The notes: a model not told the origin generated them from the letters alone. Counted from the first letter of the stretch, positions 7,659 through 44,032 are shown. The stretch is DNA of 61,724 bases from Bdellovibrio sp. (GCA_020723205.1 DYJF01000002.1:1-61724); one strand, 5' to 3'. Made by a program: numbers and translations.

Positions 7659-7678
7659 TTTTTTTATTTGGAGGATTG

Positions 7679-11142: not shown

Positions 11143-11152
11143 ATCCGCTCCT

Positions 11153-13289: not shown

Positions 13290-13298
13290 TCGCCGCCT

Positions 13299-14132: not shown

Positions 14133-14160
14133 TTTCAATATCAAGTCAAGGGGTATTTCG

Positions 14161-14321
14161 GCGCCGCCGATGCGGTAGGGGTGAGTGCCAGAGGGACGGC
14201 GTCGTTTTTAGGGTACGGCCCAAAAACGCGCCTTAACTCTCGGCAGGCGTATCATCATAGCCATCGTTACGCCTGCCTCCGAGATACCCTCTGGCACTCA
14301 CCCCTACCGCATCGGCAGCGC
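14161..14321. repeat. 161 nt palindromic (MITE/REP-like) element with 30 nt perfect terminal inverted repeats and nested inner hairpins
   Basis: GCCGATGCGGTAGGGGTGAGTGCCAGAGGG (14166-14195) is the exact reverse complement of 14287-14316. The arms extend to 35 nt with one mismatch. An inner inverted repeat pairs GGCAGGCGTA with TACGCCTGCC. Confidence 0.7.
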
Positions 14322-25284: not shown

Positions 25285-25437
25285 TCAAGACCTCCCGTAT
25301 TCCGGCATTTCTAGATGAAGAAAAAAGGGAATGCAAGACCGCTATCCCCAAGTAAACACTTGCAAAATGACGTGGGGCGTTATATGCCGGACGGACAAAA
25401 ATCGTCTGGGGGAGACGTACATATTCCGGAGGGAACT

Positions 25438-28400: not shown

Positions 28401-30333
28401 GAAGGACCCGGCGGCCTTCCATGCGCTCAATTTCGCCCAGCGTATCGCCTCGGAGCGGGAGCTATTGAGCGGTTCCCTAAGCGGCACCGATCTTTCAGGA
28501 GAGCTGATACAGGGCATGCCTCCGGCGAAGGTCGTAGTGTTCACATCGGTGGAGATCGCAGAGGCCGCGATGCGGCAGGGGATGCCCGCTACGAAACCGA
28601 CGATAAGCTTCGTACCCGGCACGGACCCGCAGCAGTATCACCAGCGCGACAGCGTCAATCATCCCGACATACAGCTTCTGTTCAACGATCTAAGGGAGAG
28701 GGGCGTTGTTCCCGCTGAAATACTCGATGCGCTCATGCAGAACCCGCAGAACTTCAACGTGATAGTCGAGGCGGGCCGCATGGATATGTCGAAGCGAAAA
28801 CACCTGCTCATCGAGGCGATGGCCTCTCTGCCGCCCAACACCGTCATGTTAATAACCGGCGGGAGGGACAGGGCCGGCATCTATGACGGTCTGAAGGGCA
28901 GGATCGAGCGCTTGGGCCTTGAGAACCGTGTCTTCCTGCTTGGTATGGTCCCAGAAGAAGTAATGGGACCTCTAATGAGCATCCCCCACGGCGAGGCCGA
29001 CGACCAGTTTCGCCTTGCGATGGTTGCGAGCGCGTCCGGGATGGAGGGATGGGGAATGGCGGTGCAGGATGGCACTAGAGGCGGAATGCCGCTGGTGGGC
29101 TCCGACAGGATACCTTATGCGGTGCATCTCTCAAGGGCGGCCAACGCCGCCGTCGTGGTGCCGAGCGGAGGCAGCGAGACGGAGGAGGTGGCGCGTTACG
29201 CGGAGGCGCTAAGGTCCATGATAGACAATCCGCCTGCCGCCCGCGACACGGCCACGAGGTCCTTAAAGATAGCGCAGCAATATGAATGGAAGACCCTGAC
29301 GGAGAACGCGATGGCGCAGCTGACCGGTCTTCTCTTCATGTCGGGGGACGTGTCGCAGACTATGGTGGCGGGGGCGGCGATCGCCGTCGGCGGTTCCAAG
29401 CACGTCGTGATATTTGCCGGCGGTTCCGGCACCAGGTTCAGGCCCTACAGCTCGGACGAGGTGCCCAAGCAGTTCCTGCCCATCACGCATCAGGATAGAA
29501 CGATGCTACAGGTCACGGCCGAGAGATTCAAGGGGTTCGTGCCTGAAGAGAACATATGGATATCGACGAACGCCCGTCATGTCGATCTTGTCGGCGAGCA
29601 GCTTCCGAATGTGCCGAGGAGCAATGTGATCGGCGAACCGGTAGCTCGCAACACTGCGCCCGCAATCGCATCGATAATGTACTGGATCGCAAGACAGGAC
29701 CCGGAGGCGACTGTCCTTTTGGTCCCCGCCGACCACTTCATCGCTTCGACGGAGACGCTCTTGGGGCAGGTCGGCGAGGCGTATGAATACGCCGCCGCAA
29801 CGGGTGCACTGCTCACGTTCGGCATCCCGCCGACATGGGCCTCTCCCGAGTACGGTTACATTGAACGGGGCGGCTCGGATGCGGCCTACACGGACATCTA
29901 TCGCGTCAGACGTTTTGTGGAGAAACCCGACGCCAAAAAAGCGCAGACATATCTCGACGGCGGCAACTTTCTTTGGAACAGCGGCATGTTCGTCTGGAGC
30001 GCCAAGTCGTTCCTTCAGAACCTTGCCCACTATCAGCCGCTCATGTACGCGGGCCTTGAGGCGATCTACGGAAGAAGCTCCGTGGAGGCGTCCCTCACGT
30101 CGGAGATGATGGAAAGGTTCTTCACACCGCTTCATCCGATATCGATCGACTATGCGTTGATGGAGCCGGCGTCGGTCGACAACCGCGTCGTCGTGCTGCC
30201 GTTCAAGAGCGATTGGTCGGACGTCGGGACGTGGCAGAGCTTGGACCGGATGGTCAGGGAGGGCAAGGCCGCGCCGCCCGAGGTGGTCCTCGAGCACATG
30301 AGGGCCAAGCTTGCGGCGGGGGGCGGTCAATAG
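25438..30333 (+). CDS. giant tri-domain fusion: Pro-rich leader + type I phosphomannose isomerase + sucrose-phosphate-synthase-like GT4 glycosyltransferase + mannose-1-phosphate guanylyltransferase
   Basis: PMI (about 25954-27369): TPWGGKRIV, LSVQVHP, SKSEAWIIL, GTMHAIGAG, TYRVYDYGR. GT4 (about 27487-29334): APDTGGQITY, TPHSLG, GMEGWGMAV. NTP-transferase (about 29395-30333): VIFAGGSGTRFRPYS..PKQFL, GEPVARNTAPAI. The open frame begins at ATG 25315. I prefer ATG 25438 because GGAGGG lies 4 nt upstream and it leaves room for the divergent ftcD promoter. Confidence 0.8.
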   Translation: MWSAGQTTLPPTFRPAFLAPPVVLPVRAALAPIMQQRSPHHFPAAPQYHQSSYVGDGEVLGYITGMSAAAQCSGSSGCGGISGADDGASVPPGGSMPPPPRDPKEFLERTSTPEGEIELLKEAMAGKPNGISWTEMIRLGRAGDPSYAELAKRPLVAALGSMVTTVLQPRSDNFTPPERTPWGGKRIVEDVKAGLGFSHQYKIVGESWEISSHESFPNVFALEYAGQALEVTISVLSRIFSEEMYGRSITSAHDEGLPFLVKLVNSGSWLPYKDDLKKMFGWLDGREYAAGWRRSLDVDCSFTEMLSWDHHALHRGIARLKTMMLQRIHSTSERHPQAPIWRQSLNVSSLENLKGRSTDELINALRLLSTMQQAGGLAEEAGETDHLALLHIIHQKMLTKNLSVQVHPPKGYDRLSPGEHSKSEAWIILDSEPGAGIYLGIKEGVTKEQFASALRAGEDVTNLLNFIQVKRGDVFFIPAGTMHAIGAGVLLMEPQETSETTYRVYDYGRLDANKRPRELKIDSAMAVTEWGGKRGEDAVQWFRRTPEVMNAGNAGTARVERVLNETFFETARLTFGRGASHLSDSDGSIKAYTVVEGAVEVYKGDEGSPVGIYQKGQSFIIPVAMGPYRMTGVTDGATVYETTVFSLDGAGRAKPTSSISEIIAKQAPEMQSRNAQFVARPSRGHILMINPQGYAGPKVPMSAPDTGGQITYLHSKARMLAKMGYKVSIVTRSFKPDEQYASYGDRMGVDFLSGTGDMVRYVFVPGLQVENAPFYRKEERHFYSDLPSMARNLALFVDDEARTQKVNPWDYFLYVDTHYVDGGKVGQRLVRIWDHMFVNKYFKERFKAVLGMRSEQDPFADDNIMGNLPYYFGKRVMAAWYDEMGSQPSYGSALNMQDVLRWAATKLEWPPDRVARLLSNSTGAAIGNGRHMLPAKFDAYTIGFRLLETAGELGRLFRYIKNLNRHVWTPHSLGQLKEDRMIADNLILKDPAAFHALNFAQRIASERELLSGSLSGTDLSGELIQGMPPAKVVVFTSVEIAEAAMRQGMPATKPTISFVPGTDPQQYHQRDSVNHPDIQLLFNDLRERGVVPAEILDALMQNPQNFNVIVEAGRMDMSKRKHLLIEAMASLPPNTVMLITGGRDRAGIYDGLKGRIERLGLENRVFLLGMVPEEVMGPLMSIPHGEADDQFRLAMVASASGMEGWGMAVQDGTRGGMPLVGSDRIPYAVHLSRAANAAVVVPSGGSETEEVARYAEALRSMIDNPPAARDTATRSLKIAQQYEWKTLTENAMAQLTGLLFMSGDVSQTMVAGAAIAVGGSKHVVIFAGGSGTRFRPYSSDEVPKQFLPITHQDRTMLQVTAERFKGFVPEENIWISTNARHVDLVGEQLPNVPRSNVIGEPVARNTAPAIASIMYWIARQDPEATVLLVPADHFIASTETLLGQVGEAYEYAAATGALLTFGIPPTWASPEYGYIERGGSDAAYTDIYRVRRFVEKPDAKKAQTYLDGGNFLWNSGMFVWSAKSFLQNLAHYQPLMYAGLEAIYGRSSVEASLTSEMMERFFTPLHPISIDYALMEPASVDNRVVVLPFKSDWSDVGTWQSLDRMVREGKAAPPEVVLEHMRAKLAAGGGQ

Positions 30334-30339
30334 GGCCGC

Positions 30340-31686
30340 TTATTTCGAGTTGTGATATTTCTCGAGCTGCGGAGCCCTTTTCTTCCACATCAGCGCGAAG
30401 AGCGCCGTTCCGATACCGGCCGCGATCGTGAAGAACAGAAAGCCGCCGTTCCAACCCCATCTGTCAACTATGAGGCCGGTGCCGAGCCCCGAAAGGGCGC
30501 TCCCAACATAACCGAACATTCCGGTGATGCCGGTCGCCGTAGATGCGGCCTTCTTTGAAGCGAAATCGGCTGCTGCAACCGGCACAAGGAGCTGCGGGCC
30601 GTAGACCAGAATGCCGGCGCAGATAAGTATGCAGGCGTCGAGGTACGGATTATTGTTCGGGGCCATCCACAGCATGATCACGGCTATCATGAGGAGGAAC
30701 ATGCTGACGGCAGCCATCGGTCCGCGTCTGCCTTTAAAGACCTTGTCGGATATCCAGCCGGCCCCGATCGCCCCTATCATCCCCGCAAGTTCGAACCCCG
30801 CGGTCTTGAAGCCGGCGCTTGCGATGGATGAACCCCTGGTCTCCACGAGGAAGGTCGGCGCCCAGTCCCTGATGCCTATCCTCACGACGTAGACGAATAC
30901 GTTCGCGAACGCCACGAGCCATACGAACTTGTTCTTGAGGATGTACTTGAGAAAGATCTCTTTGAAGGAATTCGCCTGATCCTCGTTTGGATCGGTTATG
31001 TGCGTTTCGCCCCTGTGTTCCTCGATGGGAGGAAGGCCTATGGATTGCGGCGTGTCGCGGAGGCGGTTGACTAGGAAGAAGGAGCAGGCGATCGCTATGA
31101 ACGCGGGGATGTAGAAGGCGCCGCGCCAGCCGAAATGCGGTATGAGAACCGAACCGGCGAGTATCATGATGCCCGCGGAGCCGATCTGGTGCGCCGTGCT
31201 CTGAAGCCCCCATTTGGTGCCGAGCTCCGTCGGGCTGTACCAGTGTGTCAAGAGACGCACGCTGGCGGGCATCCCGTATGACTGGAACCACGCGTTCAAG
31301 AGCCATAGTATCGCGAAGGTCGTCACACCGGAGCTCAATCCGAAGAAGAAGTTGACCACGCCGGCGCAAAAAAGACCTATAGCCATCAGATATCTTGAAT
31401 TGGCCCTGTCGGCGAGCACGCCGTTCGCGAACTTTCCAAAACCGTAAACGACCGAAAAGAGGGTCAAGACAAGACCTAAGTCGGTCTTTGTATATCCCAT
31501 GTCCTTGAGAAGGGCAGGCATTGCGATCGAGAAGTTGGCGCGCACAAAATAATATACCGCGTAGCCGATGATCATCGAATAGAGGACGCGCACCCTGTAA
31601 TGTTTATAGAGCCGCTGGACCTCTGCCGCGTCGGTTATTGGCTTTGCGTGAGGCGCGACCTTCAGGAACGAGAACGGGTTTTTCAT
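30340..31686 (-). CDS. MFS transporter, organophosphate:Pi antiporter (UhpC/GlpT/UhpT) family, copy 1
   Basis: YRVRVLYSMIIGYAVYYFVRANFSIAMPALL..GYTKTDLGLVLTLFSVVYGFGKFANGVLADR matches the OPA family. It has 12-TM-type hydrophobicity. I chose the start at MKNPF, which has a GGGGG RBS. Confidence 0.85.
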   Translation of the reverse strand: MKNPFSFLKVAPHAKPITDAAEVQRLYKHYRVRVLYSMIIGYAVYYFVRANFSIAMPALLKDMGYTKTDLGLVLTLFSVVYGFGKFANGVLADRANSRYLMAIGLFCAGVVNFFFGLSSGVTTFAILWLLNAWFQSYGMPASVRLLTHWYSPTELGTKWGLQSTAHQIGSAGIMILAGSVLIPHFGWRGAFYIPAFIAIACSFFLVNRLRDTPQSIGLPPIEEHRGETHITDPNEDQANSFKEIFLKYILKNKFVWLVAFANVFVYVVRIGIRDWAPTFLVETRGSSIASAGFKTAGFELAGMIGAIGAGWISDKVFKGRRGPMAAVSMFLLMIAVIMLWMAPNNNPYLDACILICAGILVYGPQLLVPVAAADFASKKAASTATGITGMFGYVGSALSGLGTGLIVDRWGWNGGFLFFTIAAGIGTALFALMWKKRAPQLEKYHNSK

Positions 31687-31820
31687 GTTAAACCCCCTTG
31701 AGAAGTGAATTGGTCGTATCCTATCCCTTACCCCGCTTATAAAATCAAGGCACAAAGACGCGGCGGCGCTAAAAAATCCCTTGAAAGTGCGCCTGTTATG
31801 GGCTAGAGGGTTTGGCCATT

Positions 31821-32735
31821 ATGCATACAAAGAACAGCATCTACGCAGTGATCCTCGCGGGCGGCGAAGGGACGCGCTTTGTCCCCTACAGCACCCCCGA
31901 AAGGCCCAAGCAGTTCCTCCACATCACGCACGGCGACCGGACGATGATACAAAAGACCTTCGACCGCATCGCGGCGCTCGTGGGCCCGGAGCGGATATAC
32001 GTCTCTACGAACGACCGCTACTGCGGGCTCGTTCAGGAACAGTTGCCGGATATCCCTCAAGAGAACATAATAGGCGAGCCGCTGAAGAAGAACACGGCGC
32101 CCGCCATCGCGCTTGTATCCTGCCTCATTCACAGAAAGAACCCCGACGCTGTAACTCTTTTCGTACCGGCCGATCACTACGTTTCCGATACCGAAGGCGC
32201 GGTCTCTTCCTATCTCAAGGCGACCGACCTCGCGGCAAAGGAGGACACGCTCGTGACGTTCGGGATCATGCCCACCTTCCCTTCGCCCGATTACGGCTAT
32301 ATAAGGAAGGGCGGCGCGTTCTTGAGCGGCGCGAACAAAGTGGAGAAGTTCGTTGAAAAACCCTCCGTCGAAAAGGCCAAAGGTTATTTGAAGGACGGCG
32401 GCTACTACTGGAACAGCGGAATGTTCGCGTGGCGCACGAAAACGCTCATTGATGCGCTGGAAAGACACATGCCGAAGCTCGCGTCCGATCTCAAAACGTT
32501 AAGGACGGACCGGAACGGCGCGCCCGACCGCGAATGGATGGGCGAATTCTTCACCAACGTTGAAAGCATATCCATAGATTACGGCGTGATGGAAAAGGCG
32601 TCGAACGTCGTCGTCTTCCCGTTCGGCTCGCCATGGTCCGACGTCGGCACATGGCAGGGGCTTGAAGATTTGGCAAAGAGGTTCGATCTTGAGCTGCCGA
32701 CGGTCGTGACAGGGTATCTCAAGAACCGCAACTGA
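31821..32735 (+). CDS. mannose-1-phosphate guanylyltransferase (stand-alone, no cupin domain)
   Basis: YAVILAGGEGTRFVPYSTPERPKQFLHI...GEPLKKNTAPAIAL...FGIMPTFPSPDYGYI matches GMP. It is a paralog of the C-terminal domain of the 25438 fusion. Confidence 0.85.
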   Translation: MHTKNSIYAVILAGGEGTRFVPYSTPERPKQFLHITHGDRTMIQKTFDRIAALVGPERIYVSTNDRYCGLVQEQLPDIPQENIIGEPLKKNTAPAIALVSCLIHRKNPDAVTLFVPADHYVSDTEGAVSSYLKATDLAAKEDTLVTFGIMPTFPSPDYGYIRKGGAFLSGANKVEKFVEKPSVEKAKGYLKDGGYYWNSGMFAWRTKTLIDALERHMPKLASDLKTLRTDRNGAPDREWMGEFFTNVESISIDYGVMEKASNVVVFPFGSPWSDVGTWQGLEDLAKRFDLELPTVVTGYLKNRN

Positions 32736-34110
32736 CGTTCATCCGGCCGAGAAGCGTTTTCGTCATGTGTTCCCACGTGAAGTAGGGGATGGTTATCTCG
32801 TAGGCCGCTTCGGCCATTTTTTCCCGTTTATCATTGTCCCTAAGGAGCGTTTTCAGCGCATGGGCGAAACCTTCCGTCCTGCCCGCCGGTATCACCGCGC
32901 CGCCTTTGCCCCATTTGATGGCGATCGAACCGTCTTTAGCACAAAGGTGTTCGACCGCGTGCTCCTTCGCCAGATATTCGGTGGCGAATGGAATGAGGTT
33001 AGATGATATGGTGGCGCGCTTGCAGGCCGCCGCTTCCTGAACCGACATGCCGAATCCCTCCATCTCGGAGGGGGAGAGGTAGACGGTCGCGGAGGCGAAG
33101 AGCTCCGCCATGAGATCCTCCGGCACCATGCCTACATAGACGACGCTGTCTCTTATTGCGAGCGATTCGACAAGAGACGATATTTCGCCGTAGATCTCCT
33201 TGGCCTGCGGGTTGATGCGCAGAAGGAGCATGGTATCCGGATGGTCCTTGAGCGCCTCCGCGAACGCATTTACGACGATGTCCTTGCGCTTCGTGCGGTC
33301 GGTCCGGCTCATCTCGAGCACTATGGTCTTTCCCTTCACGTGCGGACCCGTGAGCGGGTCGGTCGCTGCGAGGAAGTTGCGTACGTTAGATAGGTCCTTT
33401 TCCTTGCCGACGGGATAGGTGATCCGCGTGTCGATACACGGGGGAAGGAAGAGCTCCGGTTCGCGGTCGTAGCAGTCCTTCGAGACGCGTGATATGTCGC
33501 TTGAGGTGGATGCAACGGCGTCTATATTAGGAAGGATCTCTTTTTCATATGCGATACGTTCTTCAAAACGAAGAGGCGCGACGACCTCCTTTGGTTTTCC
33601 AACGTAATTCTCCTGCTTGAGCGCTCCCAAGGAGTGCGGGACCCAGACGTGCTTTGCCTTGAGCCCCATGCGTTCCCGGACAATGTTCGCCAGAAGGGCG
33701 GCATCCCAGTAGTGCGAGATGATGAGATCGACCGGTATCTTTTCCGCCTTGAGGAGGTTGCACGCGAATCGGGCCTCCTCTTCGAGGACCGCGCGCGTCA
33801 GGTCCTCCTTCCTGATGAACTTGTTCCCGCCTCCTTCGAGATATACGATGCGCGAGCAGGCGTCCTTGTATCTCGCGCCCGTCTGCATATCTCCCGTGAC
33901 CGGATCGGCGAATCCGCCCCTGTTCCACGTCGTGACGCGAAAACCCAGCTTTACCAGCGTGTCGGAAAGGGAGCGGACGTACTGGTTCTGTCCGCCGGTG
34001 TCCGTGAGCCCCGCGCGAACCTCCCACGTGTGGACGCCGTGATTCGTTAACATGAGTATGTGCGGGCGTTTCGAACCTAAGAATTCAGCGCGCAGATCTT
34101 TGTCGTTCAT
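32719..34110 (-). CDS. sucrose-phosphate-synthase / mannosylfructose-phosphate-synthase-like GT4 glycosyltransferase
   Basis: HILMLTNHGVHTWEVRAGLTDTGGQNQYV, VPHSLGALK and SEMEGFGMSVQEAAA match SPS-like GT4. The acceptor and donor are not determinable from sequence. Confidence 0.8.
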   Translation of the reverse strand: MNDKDLRAEFLGSKRPHILMLTNHGVHTWEVRAGLTDTGGQNQYVRSLSDTLVKLGFRVTTWNRGGFADPVTGDMQTGARYKDACSRIVYLEGGGNKFIRKEDLTRAVLEEEARFACNLLKAEKIPVDLIISHYWDAALLANIVRERMGLKAKHVWVPHSLGALKQENYVGKPKEVVAPLRFEERIAYEKEILPNIDAVASTSSDISRVSKDCYDREPELFLPPCIDTRITYPVGKEKDLSNVRNFLAATDPLTGPHVKGKTIVLEMSRTDRTKRKDIVVNAFAEALKDHPDTMLLLRINPQAKEIYGEISSLVESLAIRDSVVYVGMVPEDLMAELFASATVYLSPSEMEGFGMSVQEAAACKRATISSNLIPFATEYLAKEHAVEHLCAKDGSIAIKWGKGGAVIPAGRTEGFAHALKTLLRDNDKREKMAEAAYEITIPYFTWEHMTKTLLGRMNVSCGS

Positions 34111-34124
34111 CTTCTATTCTCCTG

Positions 34125-37100
34125 TCACCTTTGCGATCCGGCGGCAGCGTCGGCCACCGAGGTTCCGCTCTGTGCCGCGGGGGCGTGCGGCGGGAAGTTG
34201 AAGAGCCCCTCGAATATCTTCATAAAATCGGGATGGTTCTCGTGTCCCACTACGCGTTCGTTGAACTCTTCGGGCGGCGTCGCAAGCTGTTTCATTAGTT
34301 GAACTTTATTCTTTCTTCGCGACCTGTCCGCGGGCGGCGTTAAAAGCTCGATGTCCGTTCCAAGAAGGTCCAGCGTCCACGGATTGCGGTCAAAAAACTC
34401 CCTTATAAGTTCGCCCGTTTCAGTATTGTTCCGCGCCAGCGCCAGCGTCATGAGGAGCGGCTGCAGTGCTTTGTACGCGTTGACGTCCGCGGCGTAATGG
34501 AGGATCATCTCGAGAAGGACCTCCAGTTGAGCCTTGTCTATGCGTTCGTCGTATCTCCCCTCCATCATCTGTTGAAGGTTCGCGTACATATCCGTGTTCG
34601 TCGATGAGGGATAATCACCGGGTTTTACGACCTGCTTTACAGCCCATAGCGGCAGGAATCTGTCGCGCAGGCGGTTGTGCGGGAGCAATAGATGCATAGG
34701 ATGCATGCGCTGTCCGCTCATCGCGAACGTCGTGAAGACGGTCCTGAAATGTTCGGCCTTCTCTTTCATTAGCTTCGCGATCGATGCATCGGCTGCCTCG
34801 GCGCTTATCAGGCCGCTCGACAGTTGCTGCTTGACGTCCGCTATCTCCGCGTTCGTTTCCCTGACCTTGCCGGCCGCCTTTTCAAGCATCTCTCTGATCG
34901 AGGCGCGTTCCCACTTCGTCCCGCTGGGTTCGGGCCATGTCAAGGTAGAAACGGCGTTGCCGGAGACCATATTCGGGAGCGACATCGCGGCTTGCGACAG
35001 CCATTCGGTGTCGACTCCCATGCGCGCCCTTGCCGCAGATCCTATGACGTCGTAGATCGGGATTCGGCCCGTCCTGTTCCTTGCGTATGGCATCGTGAAC
35101 GCATAGAGGCCTCCAACGACGGTTTCCATGACCCTTCTGTCGATGCGCTGCCCCACGGAATCCTGCCATGCTTCCGAGGCCAAGGTCCTTATCGGTATCT
35201 TGCCTTTAAGGAGACCGGAAAGACCCAGTGTGAAGGGAAGGTTGCCTATGGCCGTAGCCACTCCTACCAAACATGCGTCGGCGATGGTTACGATCTCCTC
35301 TCGTTTGGGCTGCATCTCGGCGCTGATGGGAGAGGTGAGGCCGTTCACCATGGCAATGGCCATGGCCATGCTCTTGTTCGAAAGAGACAGGGCCCTAATG
35401 AAATTCCACACGGTTTGTTTCTTGGTCTTTCCCTTTTCCCAGCGGACCATCTTGGTGATGAGCATCATGAAGATGGCCTCGGTGGAGACGATGGATGCGC
35501 GCAGGAAACCGTAGAGCCATTCCAATTGCGTCGGGTCGGGAGCGGAGAGCGGAACGCCCTTTTTATACCAAAGGCGCAGGTCAGCGGATAAGCCGATGGC
35601 AGCCGGCAGGAACATCCACGAAACCTTATCGAGATGCCATCTTGTTTCGGGGATCAACATGTGGGCTAGGAACATCGCTCCTGCCGCCCGTGAGTAGGTA
35701 AAGTAGAGACCGTTCAGGACCTCGATGGGGGTGCTGTTGAAAAGCTGCATACCGATATCGGCGCCAAGCATAGCGAGTCCCGGCGCTGCATATGGCAGGA
35801 CCTTGTCAGTTTCTTTTATCCATCCCTCGAGGACGGCGGCCATCAGCGGATTGTCTTCGCGGAGCTTCGGTGTCAGCATGGTCCTTGCGTAGAGGTTCGC
35901 TGCGGCAACGCCGCCAGAGCCATATGTGTATCCGTGATAAAGGAAGTTGGCTATGGCCGTCGGATCGTAAGCGGGGTTCGCGGGGTCGGCCAGAGGCCCG
36001 TATGTGCCGGGGTTCGTCACAGTGGAGACCGCGTCCGATATCCAGCCGCCGTATATGCCGTATCCACGCTGAACTGTTTCGATACCCTTAACAATGGAGT
36101 CGTGGCCCTGTTCCAGAAAATATGCCGGCGCTATCCATGCGGCGGCGTCGAGCCCCGTCTTCATTGCAAGACGGCCTATGTCCTTCACTGCCTGCGCGTT
36201 CGAGCGTTCCGGCTCGAGGCCGTAGACATAAGCGTCATGCGCCTCTTCTGTAGTAAGGCCGTTGTAGAGACGGTATCCCAACGACATGAGAAGGGCGCCT
36301 GCGAGCGGCAGCATGAAACCGTGGTCGCCGCCGGAGAGGACGTTCAACGCCTCGCCGCCAAATAGCCCCAAGCCGCCGACGAGCATCGATTGAAAGACGC
36401 CGGGGGAGTGCGCGTTGGCTATTCCCTCCTTCAGGGCGCGGATGACGGCGCGCTGCCTCATCTCCCGCTGAATGTCCTGCACCTGCATTATCTTGCCATT
36501 GTGGTCGACGAAGCGGGAGATCAACTCGTTTTCTATGATGGAGGTGGCCGCATCTGAATCCTTAAGATAGTGATTGGTCGTCAGCCATTCGGCCCTCTTG
36601 CGCGCATCGTGCCACATGCCGAGGCGGGCCATGAGAATGATGATGTTGGCCGCATATTGAGCCACGATGTCGTTCTTTTTCGGGTCGTCAAGTTTTGCGA
36701 GGATCTTGCTTGGGTACGTCAGTTCGTTGAAGGACTCTCTGATGGCGGCGGTGAGGCGGCGGCGCTCGGCGCGGTTGCGGCGCGTGACGGCGAGGGTGAG
36801 CTGATGCGCCATGATCTCAACGCTCAAGAGGTGCGTGTAATACTGCGCCTCGAGCCGTGTATTTTCGTCCTCGATACTATTATCTATCCACGCCTGTGTC
36901 TTTTTTACCATGTCGAGCGCGAAACCATAGCGATGTATGGTGGGGGTCTTCGCCTCGGTCGTCTGCTCCATCACCTTGTAGGCGCGGAGCAGCTCAAGCT
37001 TCACGTAATTCAATGCTTCGGCGTTCGATGCGGTGTTCGCGTGAAGATGGCCGTGTATCCATTTGAGGCCGGAGGCGATGGTCGAAGTTCCCGACAAGCC

Positions 37101-37592
37101 GAAAACGGCGGTGGCAGCATCGACCAAGATGTCGGCGCCGTTCTCTAAATAGCTGTAGACTGGAGCGGCTTCTGCATCGGCGGCGGGTGAAACGGGCGTT
37201 TCGAGTCCGTTAAGAATTTCCCGCGACGAATCTACCGCCGCCTGCGCGTCGTTGGAAGCGAGCGCGTTGCGGGCCTTTCTGTAATTGCTACCGATGTTCC
37301 AGAGCGTATGGGTGGGATGGTCGGCGAGAAATACGACGCCTGATTCCGTCTCAACTTCCGCGCGTCCGGCCGCAGTATCATCCGACGGCTGTATGTAACC
37401 CAGAACCTCCCCGTCTGCGGATGCGGGCGCACCGTGAAGAACGGATCCCGCCTGAGCCGGCGTAATTATTCTAGGGGTCATTGAACCGGGTAACTGCGCA
37501 GGTATTGTAAGTCGTCCTGTATAGAGAGGGCCTTGCTGTAGCATTGCGATCGGGAACAACGGCATCGAGGATGAAAGTGGTGCGCCGCTCAT
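34125..37592 (-). CDS. giant orphan protein A (1155 aa): Pro-rich leader, helical N-domain, ~400 aa hydrophobic Gly/Ala-rich core, helical C-domain
   Basis: It is a long uninterrupted ORF with a strong RBS (GAGGAGG 6 nt upstream of the ATG). Hydrophobic segments include LVGGLGLFGGEAL, FMLPLAGALLMSLGY, MFLPAAIGLSA and MAMAIAMVNGL. I recognised no family. Confidence 0.75.
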   Translation of the reverse strand: MSGAPLSSSMPLFPIAMLQQGPLYTGRLTIPAQLPGSMTPRIITPAQAGSVLHGAPASADGEVLGYIQPSDDTAAGRAEVETESGVVFLADHPTHTLWNIGSNYRKARNALASNDAQAAVDSSREILNGLETPVSPAADAEAAPVYSYLENGADILVDAATAVFGLSGTSTIASGLKWIHGHLHANTASNAEALNYVKLELLRAYKVMEQTTEAKTPTIHRYGFALDMVKKTQAWIDNSIEDENTRLEAQYYTHLLSVEIMAHQLTLAVTRRNRAERRRLTAAIRESFNELTYPSKILAKLDDPKKNDIVAQYAANIIILMARLGMWHDARKRAEWLTTNHYLKDSDAATSIIENELISRFVDHNGKIMQVQDIQREMRQRAVIRALKEGIANAHSPGVFQSMLVGGLGLFGGEALNVLSGGDHGFMLPLAGALLMSLGYRLYNGLTTEEAHDAYVYGLEPERSNAQAVKDIGRLAMKTGLDAAAWIAPAYFLEQGHDSIVKGIETVQRGYGIYGGWISDAVSTVTNPGTYGPLADPANPAYDPTAIANFLYHGYTYGSGGVAAANLYARTMLTPKLREDNPLMAAVLEGWIKETDKVLPYAAPGLAMLGADIGMQLFNSTPIEVLNGLYFTYSRAAGAMFLAHMLIPETRWHLDKVSWMFLPAAIGLSADLRLWYKKGVPLSAPDPTQLEWLYGFLRASIVSTEAIFMMLITKMVRWEKGKTKKQTVWNFIRALSLSNKSMAMAIAMVNGLTSPISAEMQPKREEIVTIADACLVGVATAIGNLPFTLGLSGLLKGKIPIRTLASEAWQDSVGQRIDRRVMETVVGGLYAFTMPYARNRTGRIPIYDVIGSAARARMGVDTEWLSQAAMSLPNMVSGNAVSTLTWPEPSGTKWERASIREMLEKAAGKVRETNAEIADVKQQLSSGLISAEAADASIAKLMKEKAEHFRTVFTTFAMSGQRMHPMHLLLPHNRLRDRFLPLWAVKQVVKPGDYPSSTNTDMYANLQQMMEGRYDERIDKAQLEVLLEMILHYAADVNAYKALQPLLMTLALARNNTETGELIREFFDRNPWTLDLLGTDIELLTPPADRSRRKNKVQLMKQLATPPEEFNERVVGHENHPDFMKIFEGLFNFPPHAPAAQSGTSVADAAAGSQR

Positions 37593-37990
37593 CTATCGCC
37601 TCCTCTTCGGGAGATTGATCTGGTTGGATTTTACGGGCGAGAACGCTTTAATCATCTAGCACCCGAGCATTTGCGGACATCTCCGCCGTGAAAGTCCCTA
37701 ATTAACAGCGTTTCATAAAAGTGCGGAAACCCTATTTCATACCCCCCTTATCTGTCAAGGACAAATGGGCAAAAAACCAAGTTTTAACGGATAATTAGCT
37801 CATTCTTAATATTTTGCCGATAGCGCCCATTTAAACAGTAGCCCGCACTGCTTTTGAAAACCCACAACTTTTATGGAATTCTGACGATACTATAGAGGGA
37901 GAAGCTGCGGCCGATATAACTTGAAATGATTAGAGAACTCTATTAGCTGTACACAAAAATGTCCGTTCGGAGACGTACTTGGTCTGGGGG

Positions 37991-40900
37991 ATGGAAAGGC
38001 CAAAGGCGAATATGACGGGCAGCATTAGATCGCCGGGCACAATAAGTTGTTCTCATTGCCACGGTACCGCTTCCGAGGTGCAGTGGCCGGCGGTGGACGC
38101 AAATTCTGTCCCGCATCCGACAGAATATACGCCGCCAGGGGACCAAAATCCTTGTCCCCACTGTCACACAGGTAATCCCGCTTCATCGATCCTTTCAACA
38201 ACATCAGGCCAGCAAACATCAGGTATAATTCTTCCACATACGAATATTTCGCCGCTCTCTTCCATGCTCGAGGAGATGCCGGCGGCGCCCGCCGCAAATG
38301 CCGCGCTCGATGAGGAATATGCGGAGGCGGTCGGGCAATTCGCAGAAGCGGTAAGTTCAGGCAATGTCGAACTTCAGGGCTCGCTCTTCAGCAAGATAAT
38401 CGATCTTTCAATCAGGCGCCATTCCTTACCCGGGATGTTCGAGGCGCTCGAAGAGAGCAAACGCGTCAAGAAAGAGATGGATGATATCGCCGGCGAGGCG
38501 GAAGAGCTTTACGACTATTTTCATTCGACGGCGGCGTGCCACGGTCAGGACCCTTACCGTCAGGCCGAGGCGACACAGTGGATGTCCGCAGTGAAGAGAG
38601 ACGTGTGGGGGGACGGCGTTCTAGAAAAACAGACGGCCGTTGTTCTTGAGCGCGAACGTATTCGCGAAGCTGCGCTTTCAGCGGTTGAAGAGGACCTCTT
38701 TGCGGCGCTTTCCGTAGTGGACGAGGAGATGCCGATAGACGACGGCATGACACGCGAGGAGACGCTACAGCCGGTGGTGGCGTCCATGTTCGCCGACACA
38801 TTCAGATCGCTTAGCGATTTCGACCGCGCCAAGAAATATTACAACCTCGCGTCGGTAAGTCCCATGCAAACGGCGACTGGCGCCGTCTGGTACCGCCTGC
38901 AGGCGCTCGAGATGGACATATTGAGCGGTGACCGCGAAAGGGTGCGGGCCGCGGCGGAAGAGATAGAGGAGATGCGCGGCGAACTCACGAACCTTCTCGC
39001 CGGCTCGTATGCGGAAGAGATCGAGAGCCAGTTCGCCGTTCCCGAGGATCCGAACACAGTCGAGATCAACATCGAAGGACCCTTCGGCACGGCGCAGGCG
39101 ATCGGATCTCCCGACGAGGTGCACCAGATAGACGCGCTTAGCTGGGGCATCCTCTACGACGCCTACGTCGAGACGGAACAGTGGGAAAAGATGGAGGCGC
39201 TCGAGACGGAGCGGCGTCAGATGGTGAAGGGGCGCATCGGAGAGGCCTCCCAGCTCGAGGCGCGGCTGCACCTTGAGAACATGGAGCGCGTCGCGCTCAT
39301 CAAGACGGTGCCGGGCGGCATTTTGCAAAGGACCTCGCGCGAGGACGGCGTGCTGGCCGCCCAAGATATTCACAGCCGGCTTATGGAGGATTTAGGCGAC
39401 GTGGGTCATCTCATTGACCCGTACATGACGCCCGAAAGGGGAGACGCGCTTTTTGAACATTTCGCCGCGCTCAACTGGAGCGTTCACGTCAACGGGTACC
39501 TGATGCGCGACCTTCCGCAGATGGCGCTGGAGCAGATGGACGAACACATCCTTCAGGTGTACGACCTTTGGCTGGAGGTCCCGTTCAAAGATACGAACTA
39601 TGTTGACATGCAGATCGCAAAGCTAAAAGAGTTCGCGCCGCAGATATTCAGGGCGGACGGCAGCATAGATCCTTATTTGGACCTGTCGGGAACCTCGGGG
39701 GGGACTAACGCCGCGGACCGCACGATGACCGCGTACTGGCGAAGAAACGACTCGGTGCGGGAGAAGGGCCTGCCGATCGGCTCCGCGGTGACCTGTTTTT
39801 TGATCGGCACTATTTTCTTCGAAACTATCGTCGTTCCGGCGATGCTTGCGGGAGCGTGCAGCGCAGGGGCGAGCTTGGGTAACCGCGAGATGAACATCGC
39901 CTCCGCGTCCGAACAGTACCGGCAGGCGGCCGCCACCGGAATAACGATGGTGTCCGCGGATGAGGCGAGCCGCAGGAGCAGGGCGTGGTACGCGATGGAG
40001 GGCCTGAACGCGGCATTCAACGCGGCGCTCGTTGCGCCGATGGCCGGTGTGTGGGGACGCGTGGGAGGTGCTGCAATTCGTGAAGGGTTAGCGGGGGCGA
40101 CGGCGAGTGCCGCGGCCAGATCGATCCTTAGCTCTTTTACGAGTCCGCTTGCGGCGATGGGAAGGGTCGGGTCTAGCATTGCAGGCGGCACTGTCAATGC
40201 CGCAAAATGGTTCTGGAAGCTCCCCGTCGGATCGCGTCTCCGTCTGGCGGGTTTCGCGCCCGCCGCTGTCGACGGGTTCTTTGTCGATCGCCAAGGCAAT
40301 CTCGTCGGCTATGACGGCGAGCTCAACCACTGGTGGGGATATGCGGGCATGGCGGCCGGCATGAGCGAAACAGGTTTCCGCCTTTTCAGGAGCGCATGGC
40401 AGCCGGGTTTCTCGGCAGCCGTATCCAGAAGCGCCTTGAGGGAGGGCGCCATCCATCTTGGCACCGATCTTATCGCGTCGGACTACTACCTTATCAGGAA
40501 TGGTGGCGGCGGCATGCAGTTCGTCGATTTCAACGCGCCGCGCGACACTGCCCTTCAAGAACACGCCTTTCAAAAACAGTTCGCGGTCGACACGTGGTTG
40601 GGTTTCGCGGGTACGGTTCTCGTCAGCGGCGACTGGCTCCAGAACGAGCTTAGGTTCGGCATGACCAACTGGGACCGCGGCCTTCTCATTTCAGGCGCTG
40701 TGCCGACCGGCTACGATATCATAAGCGATGGGCAGCTCGATTCATGGTACGGCGGCGTGGGCGGTTCCGTCGTCGCCGCCGAAATGGGCTATCGTCTGCT
40801 GAACGTGAATCCAGCCGGTTCGATGGTGTTCCTGCCGATGAAGCTCTCTTACGAATGGCTGATGCAGGCGCAGCAGGACGTCCCGCTTCAGGCGCCCGAT

Positions 40901-41869
40901 CCGCAGCGCATGATCTCATCCACGGTCGAATCCATTTTCATGATGATGCTCGTCAACGGCACCTATCAAGGCGGCCATTACTGGAACACCTTCCCCATGG
41001 GTCAGTCGATCTTCAACGCCGGCCAGCGGCTGCCGCTTCTTAACAATCTGAGATGCATCGAGGATCTAAGCCGCTTGTCCTTCTTGGGCGGGAGCAGGCC
41101 CGCCATTCAGAGCTGGAGCAGGGGAACCGCCGTGAGGCCTTTTGCAACCAACGGCGCCGTGAGGACCTACAAGCTCCGTGGCGACAAGGCGTGGAACGGT
41201 CTGGCCGAGGGGAAGGAAGACGTGATGCTGACGGTCTCCGTCACCAACGGCTCCGCCGTTTTCAATCTCAACGGGAGCGCGGTTACGGAGGCGGACCTTT
41301 TGCGGCACGGGATGGTCTGGAACAACAACACTCTCTACAGGTTCAATCCAATCCGCGAGGAGAGCATCAATCTCGGCGGAAGGCGCATGACGGTTCAGGA
41401 CGTGGGGATGCTGAACGACGGGGCCAGAGCCAGGGCGATGAGCCAGTTGAGGAACAGTGGCTGGAGGATAGAGGGCGATCGTTTTTCAAGGTGGTGGGTG
41501 CAAAGGCCCTATCATCCGGAGGTGCTTACGACGAGGCCCACGGGTCCCATGAGCACGAGTCAGTTCAAGATAGTAGAGTCGTCCATTCCAGGGGCGAACG
41601 GTGAACAGATTCCGGTCTGGCTCAAGTTCGACCGCGTGCCCGTGTATGCCGACAGCGTCCGCTTGGGCGGCAGGGATCTTCCGATATGGAGCGGCCAGCG
41701 CGAAAAGCCCCATTTCGGCTTTTGGGGCGTGGCCCTCTCCGGGCCCCCTGTTCTTGCAGAGGCCTACGCCAGCAACTACTTCATCTTCAGAAGGACTTCG
41801 AGGGGAGATCCCGACTATCAGCCGCTGCAGCGTTTCGCCAACTACGTCCCGACGGTTTTTTTCACATAG
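37991..41869 (+). CDS. giant orphan protein B (~1290 aa), paralog of giant A in its hydrophobic core
   Basis: It is a long uninterrupted ORF. The start is uncertain (TTG 37979, ATG 37991 or ATG 38012). The block SMVFLP..x14..VPLQAPDP..STVESIFMMMLV is shared with giant A (SWMFLP..x16..VPLSAPDP..STEAIFMMLI). Confidence 0.72.
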   Translation: MERPKANMTGSIRSPGTISCSHCHGTASEVQWPAVDANSVPHPTEYTPPGDQNPCPHCHTGNPASSILSTTSGQQTSGIILPHTNISPLSSMLEEMPAAPAANAALDEEYAEAVGQFAEAVSSGNVELQGSLFSKIIDLSIRRHSLPGMFEALEESKRVKKEMDDIAGEAEELYDYFHSTAACHGQDPYRQAEATQWMSAVKRDVWGDGVLEKQTAVVLERERIREAALSAVEEDLFAALSVVDEEMPIDDGMTREETLQPVVASMFADTFRSLSDFDRAKKYYNLASVSPMQTATGAVWYRLQALEMDILSGDRERVRAAAEEIEEMRGELTNLLAGSYAEEIESQFAVPEDPNTVEINIEGPFGTAQAIGSPDEVHQIDALSWGILYDAYVETEQWEKMEALETERRQMVKGRIGEASQLEARLHLENMERVALIKTVPGGILQRTSREDGVLAAQDIHSRLMEDLGDVGHLIDPYMTPERGDALFEHFAALNWSVHVNGYLMRDLPQMALEQMDEHILQVYDLWLEVPFKDTNYVDMQIAKLKEFAPQIFRADGSIDPYLDLSGTSGGTNAADRTMTAYWRRNDSVREKGLPIGSAVTCFLIGTIFFETIVVPAMLAGACSAGASLGNREMNIASASEQYRQAAATGITMVSADEASRRSRAWYAMEGLNAAFNAALVAPMAGVWGRVGGAAIREGLAGATASAAARSILSSFTSPLAAMGRVGSSIAGGTVNAAKWFWKLPVGSRLRLAGFAPAAVDGFFVDRQGNLVGYDGELNHWWGYAGMAAGMSETGFRLFRSAWQPGFSAAVSRSALREGAIHLGTDLIASDYYLIRNGGGGMQFVDFNAPRDTALQEHAFQKQFAVDTWLGFAGTVLVSGDWLQNELRFGMTNWDRGLLISGAVPTGYDIISDGQLDSWYGGVGGSVVAAEMGYRLLNVNPAGSMVFLPMKLSYEWLMQAQQDVPLQAPDPQRMISSTVESIFMMMLVNGTYQGGHYWNTFPMGQSIFNAGQRLPLLNNLRCIEDLSRLSFLGGSRPAIQSWSRGTAVRPFATNGAVRTYKLRGDKAWNGLAEGKEDVMLTVSVTNGSAVFNLNGSAVTEADLLRHGMVWNNNTLYRFNPIREESINLGGRRMTVQDVGMLNDGARARAMSQLRNSGWRIEGDRFSRWWVQRPYHPEVLTTRPTGPMSTSQFKIVESSIPGANGEQIPVWLKFDRVPVYADSVRLGGRDLPIWSGQREKPHFGFWGVALSGPPVLAEAYASNYFIFRRTSRGDPDYQPLQRFANYVPTVFFT

Positions 41870-41875
41870 CCTGTA

Positions 41876-42613
41876 ATGCAGGCGAGACGGGGACTCGACA
41901 GCCCGCTTGGAAGGTTCATGGGAGGGCTTGTCGGTTATCCCGCGAACCTTTTGGCCAACTGGCTCTTCCCGACATACAGGGACAGCGCCCCCGGACAGGT
42001 AACGATGTACGATCATCTCGATGCGGGCGGCTCTGCGGACACCTTCTTTTTAAATTCCAACGACGCGTTCTCCTCCTTCGGCAGGATCGTGACGAGCTTG
42101 AATCCGGGACCTTGGGGGCCTGCGCACGGTTCATACTACGAGATTGAGGACGTCGCTATGGACAATCTTCGCGGCGGACTCATGTGCCGCATGGACATGG
42201 CGAACGGCACGACCTTCGGCCAGTCGCTCGATTGCATAGAGCTGCCGGATTCGACGCAGCAGCAGATACAAAGGACGGATTTCGATGTGACGACGGACGT
42301 CATGAAAAGGCGCTTTGAATCGTGGGCCGGTATCTTCCGCGAGAAGATCGAGCAGGAGCGCGCAGGAGATTTGAGCGAACGCGAAAGGCGCCTGCTCATC
42401 ACGCTCGCCGGCTGGTTCAAGTCGGTGGTGAAGGAGGATCCCGAGGAACCCTCCGTCCAGCCGCTCCAAGGGGTCATCTCTGAATACAGGTGGCTCTTCG
42501 ATAAGGTCCCGACGCTCGCTACCGACCGCGACTGGCAGGATTTCATCTCGCAGGTCAACGCCGGCAGATCAAGCGTCTCCAATTTCTATTTCGATCCCCA
42601 CATGCAGAACTGA
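41876..42613 (+). CDS. hypothetical protein (245 aa), 6 nt downstream of giant B
   Basis: It is an ORF with codon usage like its neighbours. I recognised no family. Confidence 0.55.
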   Translation: MQARRGLDSPLGRFMGGLVGYPANLLANWLFPTYRDSAPGQVTMYDHLDAGGSADTFFLNSNDAFSSFGRIVTSLNPGPWGPAHGSYYEIEDVAMDNLRGGLMCRMDMANGTTFGQSLDCIELPDSTQQQIQRTDFDVTTDVMKRRFESWAGIFREKIEQERAGDLSERERRLLITLAGWFKSVVKEDPEEPSVQPLQGVISEYRWLFDKVPTLATDRDWQDFISQVNAGRSSVSNFYFDPHMQN

Positions 42614-42667: not shown

Positions 42668-44032
42668 ATGCTGAATAAAATCTTTAGCGCCCTTGCCGCG
42701 CAACCGCACGCAACTCCAATAACCGATCCGGAAGAGATAAAGAGGACCTACCGGAAATGGCGCATCCGCACCATGTATTCGATGATGACCGGTTACGCCA
42801 TATTCTATTTTTGCAGGAAGAATTTTTCGATGGCCATGCCGTCGTTTCTCAATGATCTGGGCTACACGAAGACCGATCTGGGCCTTGTGTTGACGCTTTT
42901 CTCCGTGGTCTACGGCTTTGCGAAGTTCATAAACGGCGTGCTTGCGGACAGGGGCAATCCCCGCTACTTCATGGCCATCGGCCTTTTCATGTCGGCGCTC
43001 GTGAACGTCTTCTTCGGCCTTTCGTCGTCGCTCGTTATGTTCGGCGTTTTCTGGGTGCTCAACGCGTGGTTTCAGGGGATGGGATGGCCCCCCTGCGCAC
43101 GTCTTCTGACGCACTGGTATTCGCCGACGGAGCTGGGCACGAAGTGGGGTATCTGGAACGCGTCTCACCAGTTCGGAGGCGCCGGCATTTTGATACTTGC
43201 CGGATGGCTCATACCGACATACGGCTGGCGGTCGGCGTTTTTCGTTCCCGCGGTCATCGCGATCGCAACCTCCGTGTTTCTCATTGCTATGCTTCGCGAT
43301 ACGCCGCAATCGCTGGGCCTGCCGCCTATCGAGGAATACCGCGACGAAAAACACATCGCCGATTCCCACGAGGACACGGCCGAATCTTTCAAAGAGATAT
43401 TATTCAAGCACGTGCTGACGAACCGGTTCGTCTGGATCGTGAGCATAGCGAACGCTTTCGTCTATATCGTTCGCATAGGTGTTCTGGACTGGGCGCCCAC
43501 TTTTCTCGTGGAGGCAAAACATAGCTCCATAATCAACGCCGGCATAAATGTGGCGGGCTTCGAGATAGCGGGTATCGTGGGAGCGCTGGCCGCCGGCTGG
43601 ATCTCCGACGTCCTGTTCAAAGGGAGAAGGGGACCGGTCAACGTCATCTTCATGGTCCTTCTCATCTTCGCTATGGTGGAGCTCTGGCTCGTACCGCCGG
43701 GACATCCGATGCTCGACGGCGCATTCTTGGTCGCTGTCGGCTTTTTGGTCTACGGACCGCAGATGCTGGTCGGAGTGTCCGCCGCGGACTTTGCCTCGAA
43801 GAAGGCGGCCTCGACCGCTACCGGAATGACGGGCACGTTCGGATATCTCGGGAGCGCTCTGTGCGGCATAGGCACGGGCGTCATCGTGGACAAGTGGGGG
43901 TGGGACGGCGGCTTCATCTTCTTCATTCTCTCTGCGATCATAGGGTTGTTCTTGTTCCTCTTCACGTGGTCGCACCGCGCGGCGTCGCTCGAGGCGATCC
44001 ACAACAACCGGAAGAACGCGAAGGCAAAATGA
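42668..44032 (+). CDS. MFS transporter, organophosphate:Pi antiporter (UhpC/GlpT/UhpT) family, copy 2
   Basis: WRIRTMYSMMTGYAIFYFCRKNFSMAMPSFL..GYTKTDLGLVLTLFSVVYGFAKFINGVLADR matches the OPA family. It is about two-thirds identical by eye to copy 1 over the first ~110 aligned residues. Confidence 0.87.
   Translation: MLNKIFSALAAQPHATPITDPEEIKRTYRKWRIRTMYSMMTGYAIFYFCRKNFSMAMPSFLNDLGYTKTDLGLVLTLFSVVYGFAKFINGVLADRGNPRYFMAIGLFMSALVNVFFGLSSSLVMFGVFWVLNAWFQGMGWPPCARLLTHWYSPTELGTKWGIWNASHQFGGAGILILAGWLIPTYGWRSAFFVPAVIAIATSVFLIAMLRDTPQSLGLPPIEEYRDEKHIADSHEDTAESFKEILFKHVLTNRFVWIVSIANAFVYIVRIGVLDWAPTFLVEAKHSSIINAGINVAGFEIAGIVGALAAGWISDVLFKGRRGPVNVIFMVLLIFAMVELWLVPPGHPMLDGAFLVAVGFLVYGPQMLVGVSAADFASKKAASTATGMTGTFGYLGSALCGIGTGVIVDKWGWDGGFIFFILSAIIGLFLFLFTWSHRAASLEAIHNNRKNAKAK

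Follow-up and report, generated by a model that had tools for sequence, protein, structure and literature searches.

Cyclic beta-1,2-glucan synthase (Cgs/NdvB) is a giant membrane-bound enzyme of sugar-polymer synthesis, and in the UhpABC system sugar phosphates are sensed by the receptor UhpC with a membrane partner. Large lineage-specific hypothetical proteins are common in metagenomes; to our knowledge, the organophosphate:phosphate (OPA) antiporters have been studied for decades without giant partner proteins. In the translocators of type III secretion systems (T3SS; YopB/IpaB/SipB/CopB), a helical or coiled N-terminal part is followed by a central hydrophobic hairpin. A bilobed hydrophobic domain is the defining feature of the chlamydial inclusion-membrane (Inc) proteins (PMC3290821, PMC3656976). 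Here, two giant proteins, A and B, encoded on a stretch of 61,724 nt from Bdellovibrio sp. (GCA_020723205.1 DYJF01000002.1:1-61724; the whole stretch is called the window), were compared with these systems. The first-pass annotation had described their genes as a back-to-back divergent pair of 1155 and ~1290 amino acids (aa). Both open reading frames (ORFs), their sizes and their orientation were confirmed by the six-frame ORF list, although the spacer between the starts measured 386 nt and not 398 nt. Downstream of B lies MFS2, a gene for an OPA-type transporter of the major facilitator superfamily (MFS), and A heads an operon with a family 4 glycosyltransferase gene (GT4) and a second transporter gene, MFS1, in two genomes (the window and L001; related loci and proteins are cited by their L and P numbers). 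The coordinates of all main features are collected in Table 1.

As judged by comparison with its orthologues, B is annotated as two genes owing to one nonsense change. A 245-aa ORF (P0015) starts two codons past the TAG that ends B, in the frame of B, and covers positions 752-996 of the B profile. Identity was 54-60% when this ORF was aligned with the C-terminal 245 aa of each of the five B orthologues, and 47% with the C-terminus of the tandem paralogue in L008 (E 1e-70 to 1e-100, this paralogue included). The stop falls ~50 residues into the conserved C-terminal domain, at the position of a Trp that is invariant in 6/6 relatives (PTVxFT-W-PVIQA in the alignment); all of them use TGG, from which TAG differs by a single G-to-A transition. 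Because the TAG stands at an invariant Trp and the in-frame ORF matches the missing C-terminal domain, the true unit of the gene was taken to comprise both pieces. Recoding of TAG was rejected, given that TAG ends 7 of the 25 genes of the window and is thus an ordinary stop. The beta-rich C-terminus that had been ascribed to B is accordingly an internal domain, and the true C-terminus, located past the TAG, is helical.

The TAG is probably a true mutation, which would make B a very recent pseudogene, in keeping with the loss of B and MFS2 in L001, unless it is an assembly or strain variant. L001 (Logan SRR22387966, a 14-kb contig) is the only other genome with a full-length A. Its gene order is a fusion enzyme, MFS1, GT4 and A, then an unrelated transporter gene, MFS3, and an Fe-ADH gene; B and MFS2 are absent from the contig, and MFS3 lies directly beside Fe-ADH in their place. 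That the TAG arose as an error of sequencing or assembly, or represents a minority strain variant in this metagenome-assembled contig, is a possibility to be taken seriously, and B would then be intact (~1544 aa) in the organism. The change is one transition only (TGG to TAG), no other lesion was found, and the 245 downstream codons are fully open, with an identity (54-60%) that matches the level seen over the remainder of the gene. Against this, a substitution is an untypical assembly error, the NCBI annotation likewise has two separate coding sequences, and a related genome carries A without B, hence decay of B in a sub-lineage is plausible. Real decay of B is favoured because B and MFS2 are wholly lost in L001. 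The loss or replacement of the B-MFS2 unit in that genome parallels the nonsense mutation in the B of the window.

To model the architecture of B, the intact orthologue P0004 (residues 555-1563) was submitted to AlphaFold with a 40-row alignment, giving a predicted local distance difference test score (pLDDT) of 83.7 and a predicted TM-score of 0.79. As shown by this prediction, B consists of a poorly conserved N-terminus, a charged helical region, a hydrophobic hairpin, a Gly/Ala-rich helical domain, a beta domain and a C-terminal helical domain. In the model, the Gly/Ala-rich helical domain holds the hairpin and, as a helix - Pro-loop - helix, a block of sequence shared with A; a Gly/Ala stretch in it (residues 686-738) has a pLDDT below 50. 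The near-invariant polar residues of the C-terminal domain are D1277, R1285, D1307, Y1333, E1393 and R1474 (P0004 numbering). A Foldseek search of the whole P0004 model against the PDB and BFVD gave no match (best E 0.33-0.44, TM below 0.11). A reading of the beta-plus-helical C-terminal half as an (alpha/alpha)6 glycosidase-like fold was dropped, since Foldseek support for it was nil.

The long hydrophobic cores reported in the first-pass annotation proved to be overstated. Only one Kyte-Doolittle segment of >=1.6 was found in each protein, B 606-634 (peak 2.05) and A 767-791 (peak 1.8), and the mean hydropathy of the central 400 aa was 0.18-0.20, compared with 0.54-0.59 for MFS2 and SecY and -0.14 for FTCD. 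On the basis of these values, a polytopic integral membrane protein was rejected for either giant. The description of the central regions as Gly/Ala-rich was borne out (up to 34% G+A in B 601-800), as was that of large, mostly helical proteins with no recognisable domain; membrane association is plausible for B through a conserved bilobed segment of ~40 aa. In this segment (B ~596-635), two lobes of ~18 aa each, with Glu-Thr between them, were modelled as two helices, and a hydrophobic peak was present at the same alignment position in 13/17 superfamily members. The hydrophobic region of A is a single segment of 25-29 aa. Two CxxCH motifs (CSHCH and CPHCH, at 38057-38071 and 38156-38170; residues 27-31 and 60-64), followed by a later ACH, were also observed in the N-terminus of B, a poorly conserved region; P0004, P0006 and the L008 paralogue share them, whereas P0007 and P0008 do not. 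Heme binding of the c-type cytochrome kind was rejected, because the motifs are not conserved, the Pfam cytochrome matches (E 0.15-0.18) are far below the cutoff and no signal peptide was seen.

No match above threshold was obtained when A, B and the 245-aa ORF were searched against Pfam-A, NCBIfam, PADLOC and PHROGs, in agreement with the absence of recognised domain signatures noted earlier; the sub-threshold noise comprised Prp19 (E 0.006) and cytochrome c7/MtrC (E 0.15-0.18). In 17 further superfamily members, the curated families matched nothing but N-terminal HEAT repeats in P0023, and profiles A2, A4 and A5 gave nothing below E 0.3 against PDB sequences. Because no described family or fold matches them, the giants are new by distance.

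The proteins, described at first as orphans, are not strict orphans. A forms 2 clusters and B 6 among 5.8 billion. A has one full-length relative (P0002, 76% identity) and one 531-aa relative that matches its N-terminal 495 aa; B has five orthologues (45-50% identity). When the profile of B from residue 560 to the end was searched against 1.84 billion representatives, 39 proteins were retrieved (29 at E<1e-30), mostly of 1100-2600 aa, several of which match by the C-terminal domain alone. A word-index search with a 35-sequence profile gave just six already known proteins, and two scans of metagenome contigs (for the A family and for the shared block) gave no confirmed match. Only one species with a relative was found among the GTDB representatives (metagenome-assembled genome JAZDOG01, labelled "Pseudomonadota bacterium"), and each of the nine housekeeping-type proteins checked in the window is a singleton at 90% identity. 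Going by these searches, the two families occur in a single lineage of uncultured bacteria of Gram-negative type and are extremely rare. Tandem pairs of the B superfamily were observed in three relatives (L008:4342-9300 and 9613-14301; L010:10001-21315; L012:8001-21376), and in L010 an upstream 573-aa ORF also matches the N-terminal region of B (E 1e-7 to 1e-11).

The genes around the giants were compared in about twelve contexts. MFS2 belongs to the UhpC/GlpT/PgtP type: it matches Pfam MFS_1 (E 7.5e-55), the UhpC-type subfamily of NCBIfam below the cutoff (E 7e-140) and the PgtP subfamily above it. An OPA-type MFS gene directly follows a B-family gene in the window, L003, L004, L005/6, L008, L010, L011 and L013. 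It follows a tandem pair of giants in L010, and in L013 it is only 42% identical to MFS2, next to a giant ~20% identical to B. On the P0026 contig the MFS gene precedes the giant, and a third giant family likewise stands ahead of MFS3 in L002. Genes for mannose-6-phosphate isomerase (PMI), phosphomannomutase (PMM) or mannose-1-phosphate guanylyltransferase (GMP) lie beside giants in the window, L001, L003, L010, L012 and L013. The window carries a PMI-GT4-GMP fusion and a separate GMP, and L001 has the fusion again; a PMI cupin is found in L003, PMI in L010, a PMI-like gene with phosphoglucomutase (PGM)/PMM in L012, and a PGM/PMM-PMI fusion with PMI in L013. This theme of MFS and mannose-phosphate genes persists at giant identities of ~19-27% and an MFS identity of 42%, where the remaining synteny is lost. 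It outlasts all other synteny and is therefore evidence of functional coupling, though not proof.

Sequence conservation was also compared among neighbouring genes. Between the window and L001, A is 76% identical and GT4, MFS1, the fusion enzyme and Fe-ADH are 64-74% identical, so A is under clear purifying selection. The B orthologues, at 45-50% identity, occur where MFS2 is 76-86% and RlmN 58-64% identical.

Several further features of these genes were recorded. Three distinct UhpC/GlpT-like MFS types occur in the lineage (window 30340-31755 and 42668-44032; L001:1373-2731 and L002:15756-17099); MFS3 is ~33% identical to both MFS1 and MFS2, and each type goes with a different giant family (A, B or the third). 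The fusion enzyme (25315-30333) has a Pro-rich extension of ~200 aa ahead of its domains, and other giant fusions in related loci are a PGM/PMM-PMI protein of 1611 aa (L013) and a Na/Pi-cotransporter protein of 1792 aa (L010). The stand-alone GMP gene (31812-32735, plus strand) lies on the opposite strand inside A-GT4-MFS1, its 3' end overlapping that of GT4 by 17 nt, and is absent at that position in L001. Downstream of MFS2 are a glycerol-1-phosphate-dehydrogenase-like Fe-ADH_2 gene (44029-45375, plus strand; E 1.7e-60, below the equivalog cutoff) and a HAD phosphatase gene (45353-46033, plus strand). Together with GT4 and the GDP-mannose enzymes, they resemble a pathway to a mannosyl-polyol or mannosyl-sugar (compatible-solute-like) product.

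From this neighbourhood and the model of B, it is tentatively proposed that the giants may be hairpin-anchored cytoplasmic proteins tied to sugar-phosphate transport and mannose-phosphate metabolism. The hairpin would dip into the cytoplasmic membrane, with both large flanks remaining in the cytoplasm, and B would work next to the UhpC/GlpT-type antiporter encoded immediately downstream. B could then serve as an enzyme or scaffold for metabolites derived from mannose- or hexose-phosphate and supplied or removed by the antiporter, PMI, PMM, GDP-mannose pyrophosphorylase, GT4 and the HAD phosphatase, its C-terminal domain acting on or binding molecules derived from sugar phosphates. A, as first gene of the parallel operon, might play an analogous role with GT4 and MFS1. 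A bolder form of this proposal, which seems to us rather unlikely, is that the B superfamily, and by analogy A and the third family, would form a class of giant cytoplasmic proteins not described before, anchored by a hairpin and having a new three-domain fold. In that form, the C-terminal domain would be a new sugar-phosphate enzyme or regulator, and, within an unsampled bacterial lineage, the proteins and the UhpC/GlpT-type antiporters whose obligate partners they are would serve a mannose-phosphate pathway.

A number of observations weigh against this proposal. An enzymatic or scaffold role is backed by no biochemical or structural homology, and Gly, Pro and aromatic residues make up most of the conserved positions, pointing to structural roles. 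The hairpin is predicted from hydropathy, and its lobes are just ~18 residues long with Glu and Pro inside. The AlphaFold prediction of A, made with its only homologue, was all-alpha with a pLDDT of 37 and is unusable; the finding of no signal peptide was judged by eye only. The B orthologue of L002 has no adjacent MFS gene, L012 has PGM/PMM with no MFS gene directly downstream, and the conservation of the neighbourhood may partly be due to shared descent within one lineage.

With respect to the known sugar-related systems, the giants share with Cgs/NdvB the very large size, the position (for the giants, a proposed one) at the cytoplasmic face of the membrane, neighbouring genes for sugar nucleotides or sugar phosphates, and beta-sandwich and helical domains in the C-terminal half. 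They differ in that no glycosyltransferase or glycoside hydrolase domain was found by Pfam, PDB sequence search or Foldseek, in having one hairpin rather than several transmembrane helices, and in that any catalysis is purely hypothetical. As in UhpABC, a UhpC-like MFS protein is encoded beside a membrane-associated partner (for the giants, a proposed one); unlike in UhpABC, this partner has no histidine-kinase or response-regulator domains, the MFS protein scores below the UhpC cutoff, and the linkage is to PMI, PMM and GMP, not to a regulator.

It is improbable that A and B are secreted effectors or translocators, similar to Incs or to T3SS translocators, from a predatory or host-associated bacterium; in that case, the disordered N-terminus would act as secretion signal, the hairpin would enter the membrane of a host or prey cell and the UhpC-type antiporters would import host sugar phosphates. 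Like chlamydial Incs (PMC3290821, PMC3656976), the giants show no signal peptide and have little or no sequence similarity to anything; the conserved hydrophobic segment of B (~40 aa), flanked by soluble helical regions, is a candidate counterpart of the bilobed domain of ~40-60 aa expected of an Inc protein. Their N-termini are poorly conserved and of low complexity. Several paralogues per genome occur, with tandem duplications and variable N-terminal regions (HEAT repeats included), two or three UhpC-like genes are found per locus, and the lineage is poorly sampled, every housekeeping protein checked being a singleton at 90% identity. However, Incs are ~100-1000 aa, type-III secreted and confined to Chlamydiae, whereas the giants have 1155-2600 aa, a large conserved beta-plus-helical C-terminal part and a metabolic and transport linkage, and the related genome is labelled Pseudomonadota. 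No T3SS gene was found in the window or in the 13 related loci, and no other secretion-system gene, chaperone or effector domain in any of these 13 loci. In comparison with the T3SS translocators, the giants lie beside GT4, MFS, Fe-ADH_2 and HAD genes and not beside chaperone or needle-tip genes, are 3-4 times larger and have a fold without a PDB match. No match at E<=1 was obtained between the giants and the translocator families of Pfam and NCBIfam. Overall, the giants are 3-10 times larger than Incs or translocators; their conserved part is the core and C-terminus, linked to metabolic genes; A is more conserved than its housekeeping neighbours, unlike arms-race effectors; and the window encodes free-living metabolism (histidine utilisation, glycine cleavage, FeoB and TonB). 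Only the hairpin and the missing signal peptide speak for the effector or translocator reading, and the conserved gene context suggests a tie to sugar-phosphate transport and mannose-phosphate metabolism instead.

To determine whether A and B are paralogues, as had been suggested from a collinear conserved block, the two proteins were aligned pairwise. The block was recovered at the expected residues by BLASTP (A 658-714 versus B 948-993; 21/58 identical, E 0.002) and by hhalign of A plus 2 relatives against B plus 6 relatives (56 columns, E 1.4e-4, probability 53%). The A profile against the 35-sequence superfamily profile aligned over 92 columns (E 0.0016, probability 16%). A hidden Markov model of the block, built from 17 diverse members of the B superfamily, scored 8.0 bits on A, a score reached by 2/2000 locally shuffled copies of A. 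Outside the block, no significant similarity was found by BLASTP or hhalign, and A was not retrieved by the exhaustive B-profile search (1.84 billion representatives). The claim of common ancestry is thus supported for the short block only, which by the standard that the first-pass annotation had set for itself counts in part against its reading: at a detectable level, A and B have one ~55-aa helix-loop-helix module in common and are otherwise unrelated, and whole-protein paralogy is unproven.

The block is the most conserved stretch of the B family (0.83). The motifs S[WM]xFLP, PLxAPD and STxE[AS]IFMM are shared by A, P0002 and the close B orthologues (the last with variants of 1-2 residues in some, e.g., L002, L004 and L005), and the B superfamily retains the E, P, PD, R and ES positions. 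Between A and P0002 the motif residues are constant and adjacent residues vary. Recent gene conversion was rejected as the origin of the block, which must be old, because its DNA copies in A and B differ at many synonymous sites and it is kept in L001, which is without B.

By the alignments, A is a mosaic of modules found in other families. Its N-terminal module is 41% identical over 523 aa to the separate protein of L002 (17115-18710, minus strand; E 1.6e-103, phmmer E 2e-105), and its C-terminal module matches the third giant family (L002:12005-15592 and L004:2789-5623; hhalign 108 columns, E 1.4e-4, probability 52%; BLASTP E 0.008). An N-terminal likeness of A (37406-37592, residues 1-62) to the fusion enzyme (25315-25630) and to the third giant family (LPLFPQM versus MPLFPIAM in A) was seen by eye and was not significant (BLASTP E 0.23-4.5); the match of ADGEVLGYIQP in A with GDGEVLGYITG in the fusion enzyme was rejected at E 0.23.

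The pairing of A and B is not conserved as a unit, since L001 has A without B and other genomes have B without A: no A was found near the B orthologues of L003, L004, L005/6 and L008, and in L002, where B has an orthologue, A is represented only by its fragment-like relative of 531 aa. Judging by these genomes, the divergent arrangement is specific to this genome and is an accident, not a system. That A and B are true, highly diverged paralogues acting as a heteromeric pair from a shared divergent promoter region is very doubtful: the block in A keeps most of the near-invariant residues of the B superfamily (the Pro, PD, Arg and E-[SA] positions), the alignment extends weakly to 92 columns, the layouts are alike (a helical N-terminal part, a Gly/Ala-rich centre and similar Gly-x-x-x-Gly/aromatic helices) and an AT-rich spacer of 386 nt is shared, but similarity ends at the block, the exhaustive search missed A, A is a mosaic with modules common to two further families, L001 carries A but no B, at least five genomes carry B but no A, and B is broken in the sole genome where both meet.

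Table 1. Main features of the giant-gene locus (positions are those of the window)
Feature	Position	Strand	Remarks
PMI-GT4-GMP fusion (mannose-6-P isomerase, GT4, mannose-1-P guanylyltransferase)	25315..30333	+	1672 aa; L001 orthologue 64% identical
MFS1, second UhpC/GlpT-type antiporter	30340..31755	-	64% identical to MFS2; last in A operon
GT4 glycosyltransferase (sucrose-phosphate-synthase/MshA-like)	32719..34110	-	14 nt downstream of A; same place in L001
Giant A	34125..37592	-	1155 aa; ATG start; six-frame ORF list
C-terminal module of A	34284..34622	-	Residues 991-1103; common to third giant family
Sole strongly hydrophobic segment of A	35220..35294	-	Residues 767-791; Kyte-Doolittle 19-residue mean 1.8
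Shared block in A	35457..35621	-	Residues 658-712; SWMFLP..VPLSAPDP..STEAIFMML
N-terminal module of A	36108..37592	-	Residues 1-495; separate 531-aa protein in L002
Divergent intergenic spacer A/B	37593..37978		386 nt; AT-rich
B as read to first stop	37979..41869	+	1296 aa; TTG start; six-frame ORF list
Ancestral giant B gene, as deduced	37979..42613	+	~1544 codons, one in-frame TAG; pieces collinear with orthologues of 1510-1628 aa
Gly/Ala-rich helical domain of B (predicted)	39695..41074	+	~Residues 573-1032; P0004 AlphaFold model, mostly pLDDT 85-95
Bilobed hydrophobic hairpin of B (predicted)	39752..39904	+	~Residues 592-642; core GLPIGSAVTCFLIGTIFF-ET-IVVPAMLAGACSAGASLG
Shared block in B	40817..40954	+	Residues 947-992; helix - Pro-rich loop - helix hairpin; best conserved part of B family
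Beta-rich domain of B (predicted)	41102..41716	+	~Residues 1042-1246; model strands 482-692, pLDDT ~90
C-terminal helical domain of B (predicted)	41720..42592	+	~Residues 1248-1538; most widespread module of the superfamily; split by TAG
Premature stop TAG	41867..41869	+	In place of invariant Trp codon TGG
Severed 3' part of B	41876..42613	+	245-aa ORF, same frame; most of C-terminal helical domain
MFS2, UhpC/GlpT/PgtP-type organophosphate:phosphate antiporter	42668..44032	+	54 nt downstream of B; downstream of B-family genes in 7 genomes

The start of B and the spacer were also analyzed. In the alignment with the orthologue P0004, the TTG start of B falls opposite the ATG start, and the residues directly after it are conserved; because of this agreement, the 1201-aa version of B in the NCBI annotation is probably too short. 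The spacer has a GC content of 43%, against ~57% for the whole window. A sigma-70-like site was located in it at 37766-37795 (plus strand), at a frequency no more than chance, and an Rfam search of the spacer gave no match.

The surroundings are those of an ordinary chromosome, with genes for SecY, Map, S4, RpoA, FeoB, histidine utilisation, glycine cleavage, TonB and a PEGA-domain Ser/Thr kinase. An origin from a defence system or phage was rejected on account of this chromosomal context (SecY, RpoA and S4) and 0 matches to PADLOC and PHROG, and no further members of the giant families were found in a scan of the rest of the window. The kinase (57738-59762, minus strand; 674 aa) has three PEGA domains at its C-terminus. 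The S4 ORF (7397-8305, plus strand) has 302 aa with the S4 domain beginning at residue 97, so an over-long start is probable rather than a real extension. Two plus-strand ORFs after an amidohydrolase gene (21040-21822, 260 aa; 21835-22995, 386 aa) match nothing in Pfam or NCBIfam; the shorter one is kept at the same position in L002 and L003 (51-57% identity), and the longer one has no match in any related locus.

If the linkage of the giants to antiporters were only inherited synteny, they would add another to the lineage-specific families of large hypothetical proteins and would be of modest interest. The added value of the present analysis lies in two things, the confident and novel model of B and the robust linkage of the giants with genes for OPA antiporters and mannose-phosphate enzymes. 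This genome may be in the process of losing B. If the linkage is functional, the giants would represent a protein fold and a type of OPA-antiporter partner that are both new, and they would provide a handle on the biology of a very poorly sampled bacterial lineage.

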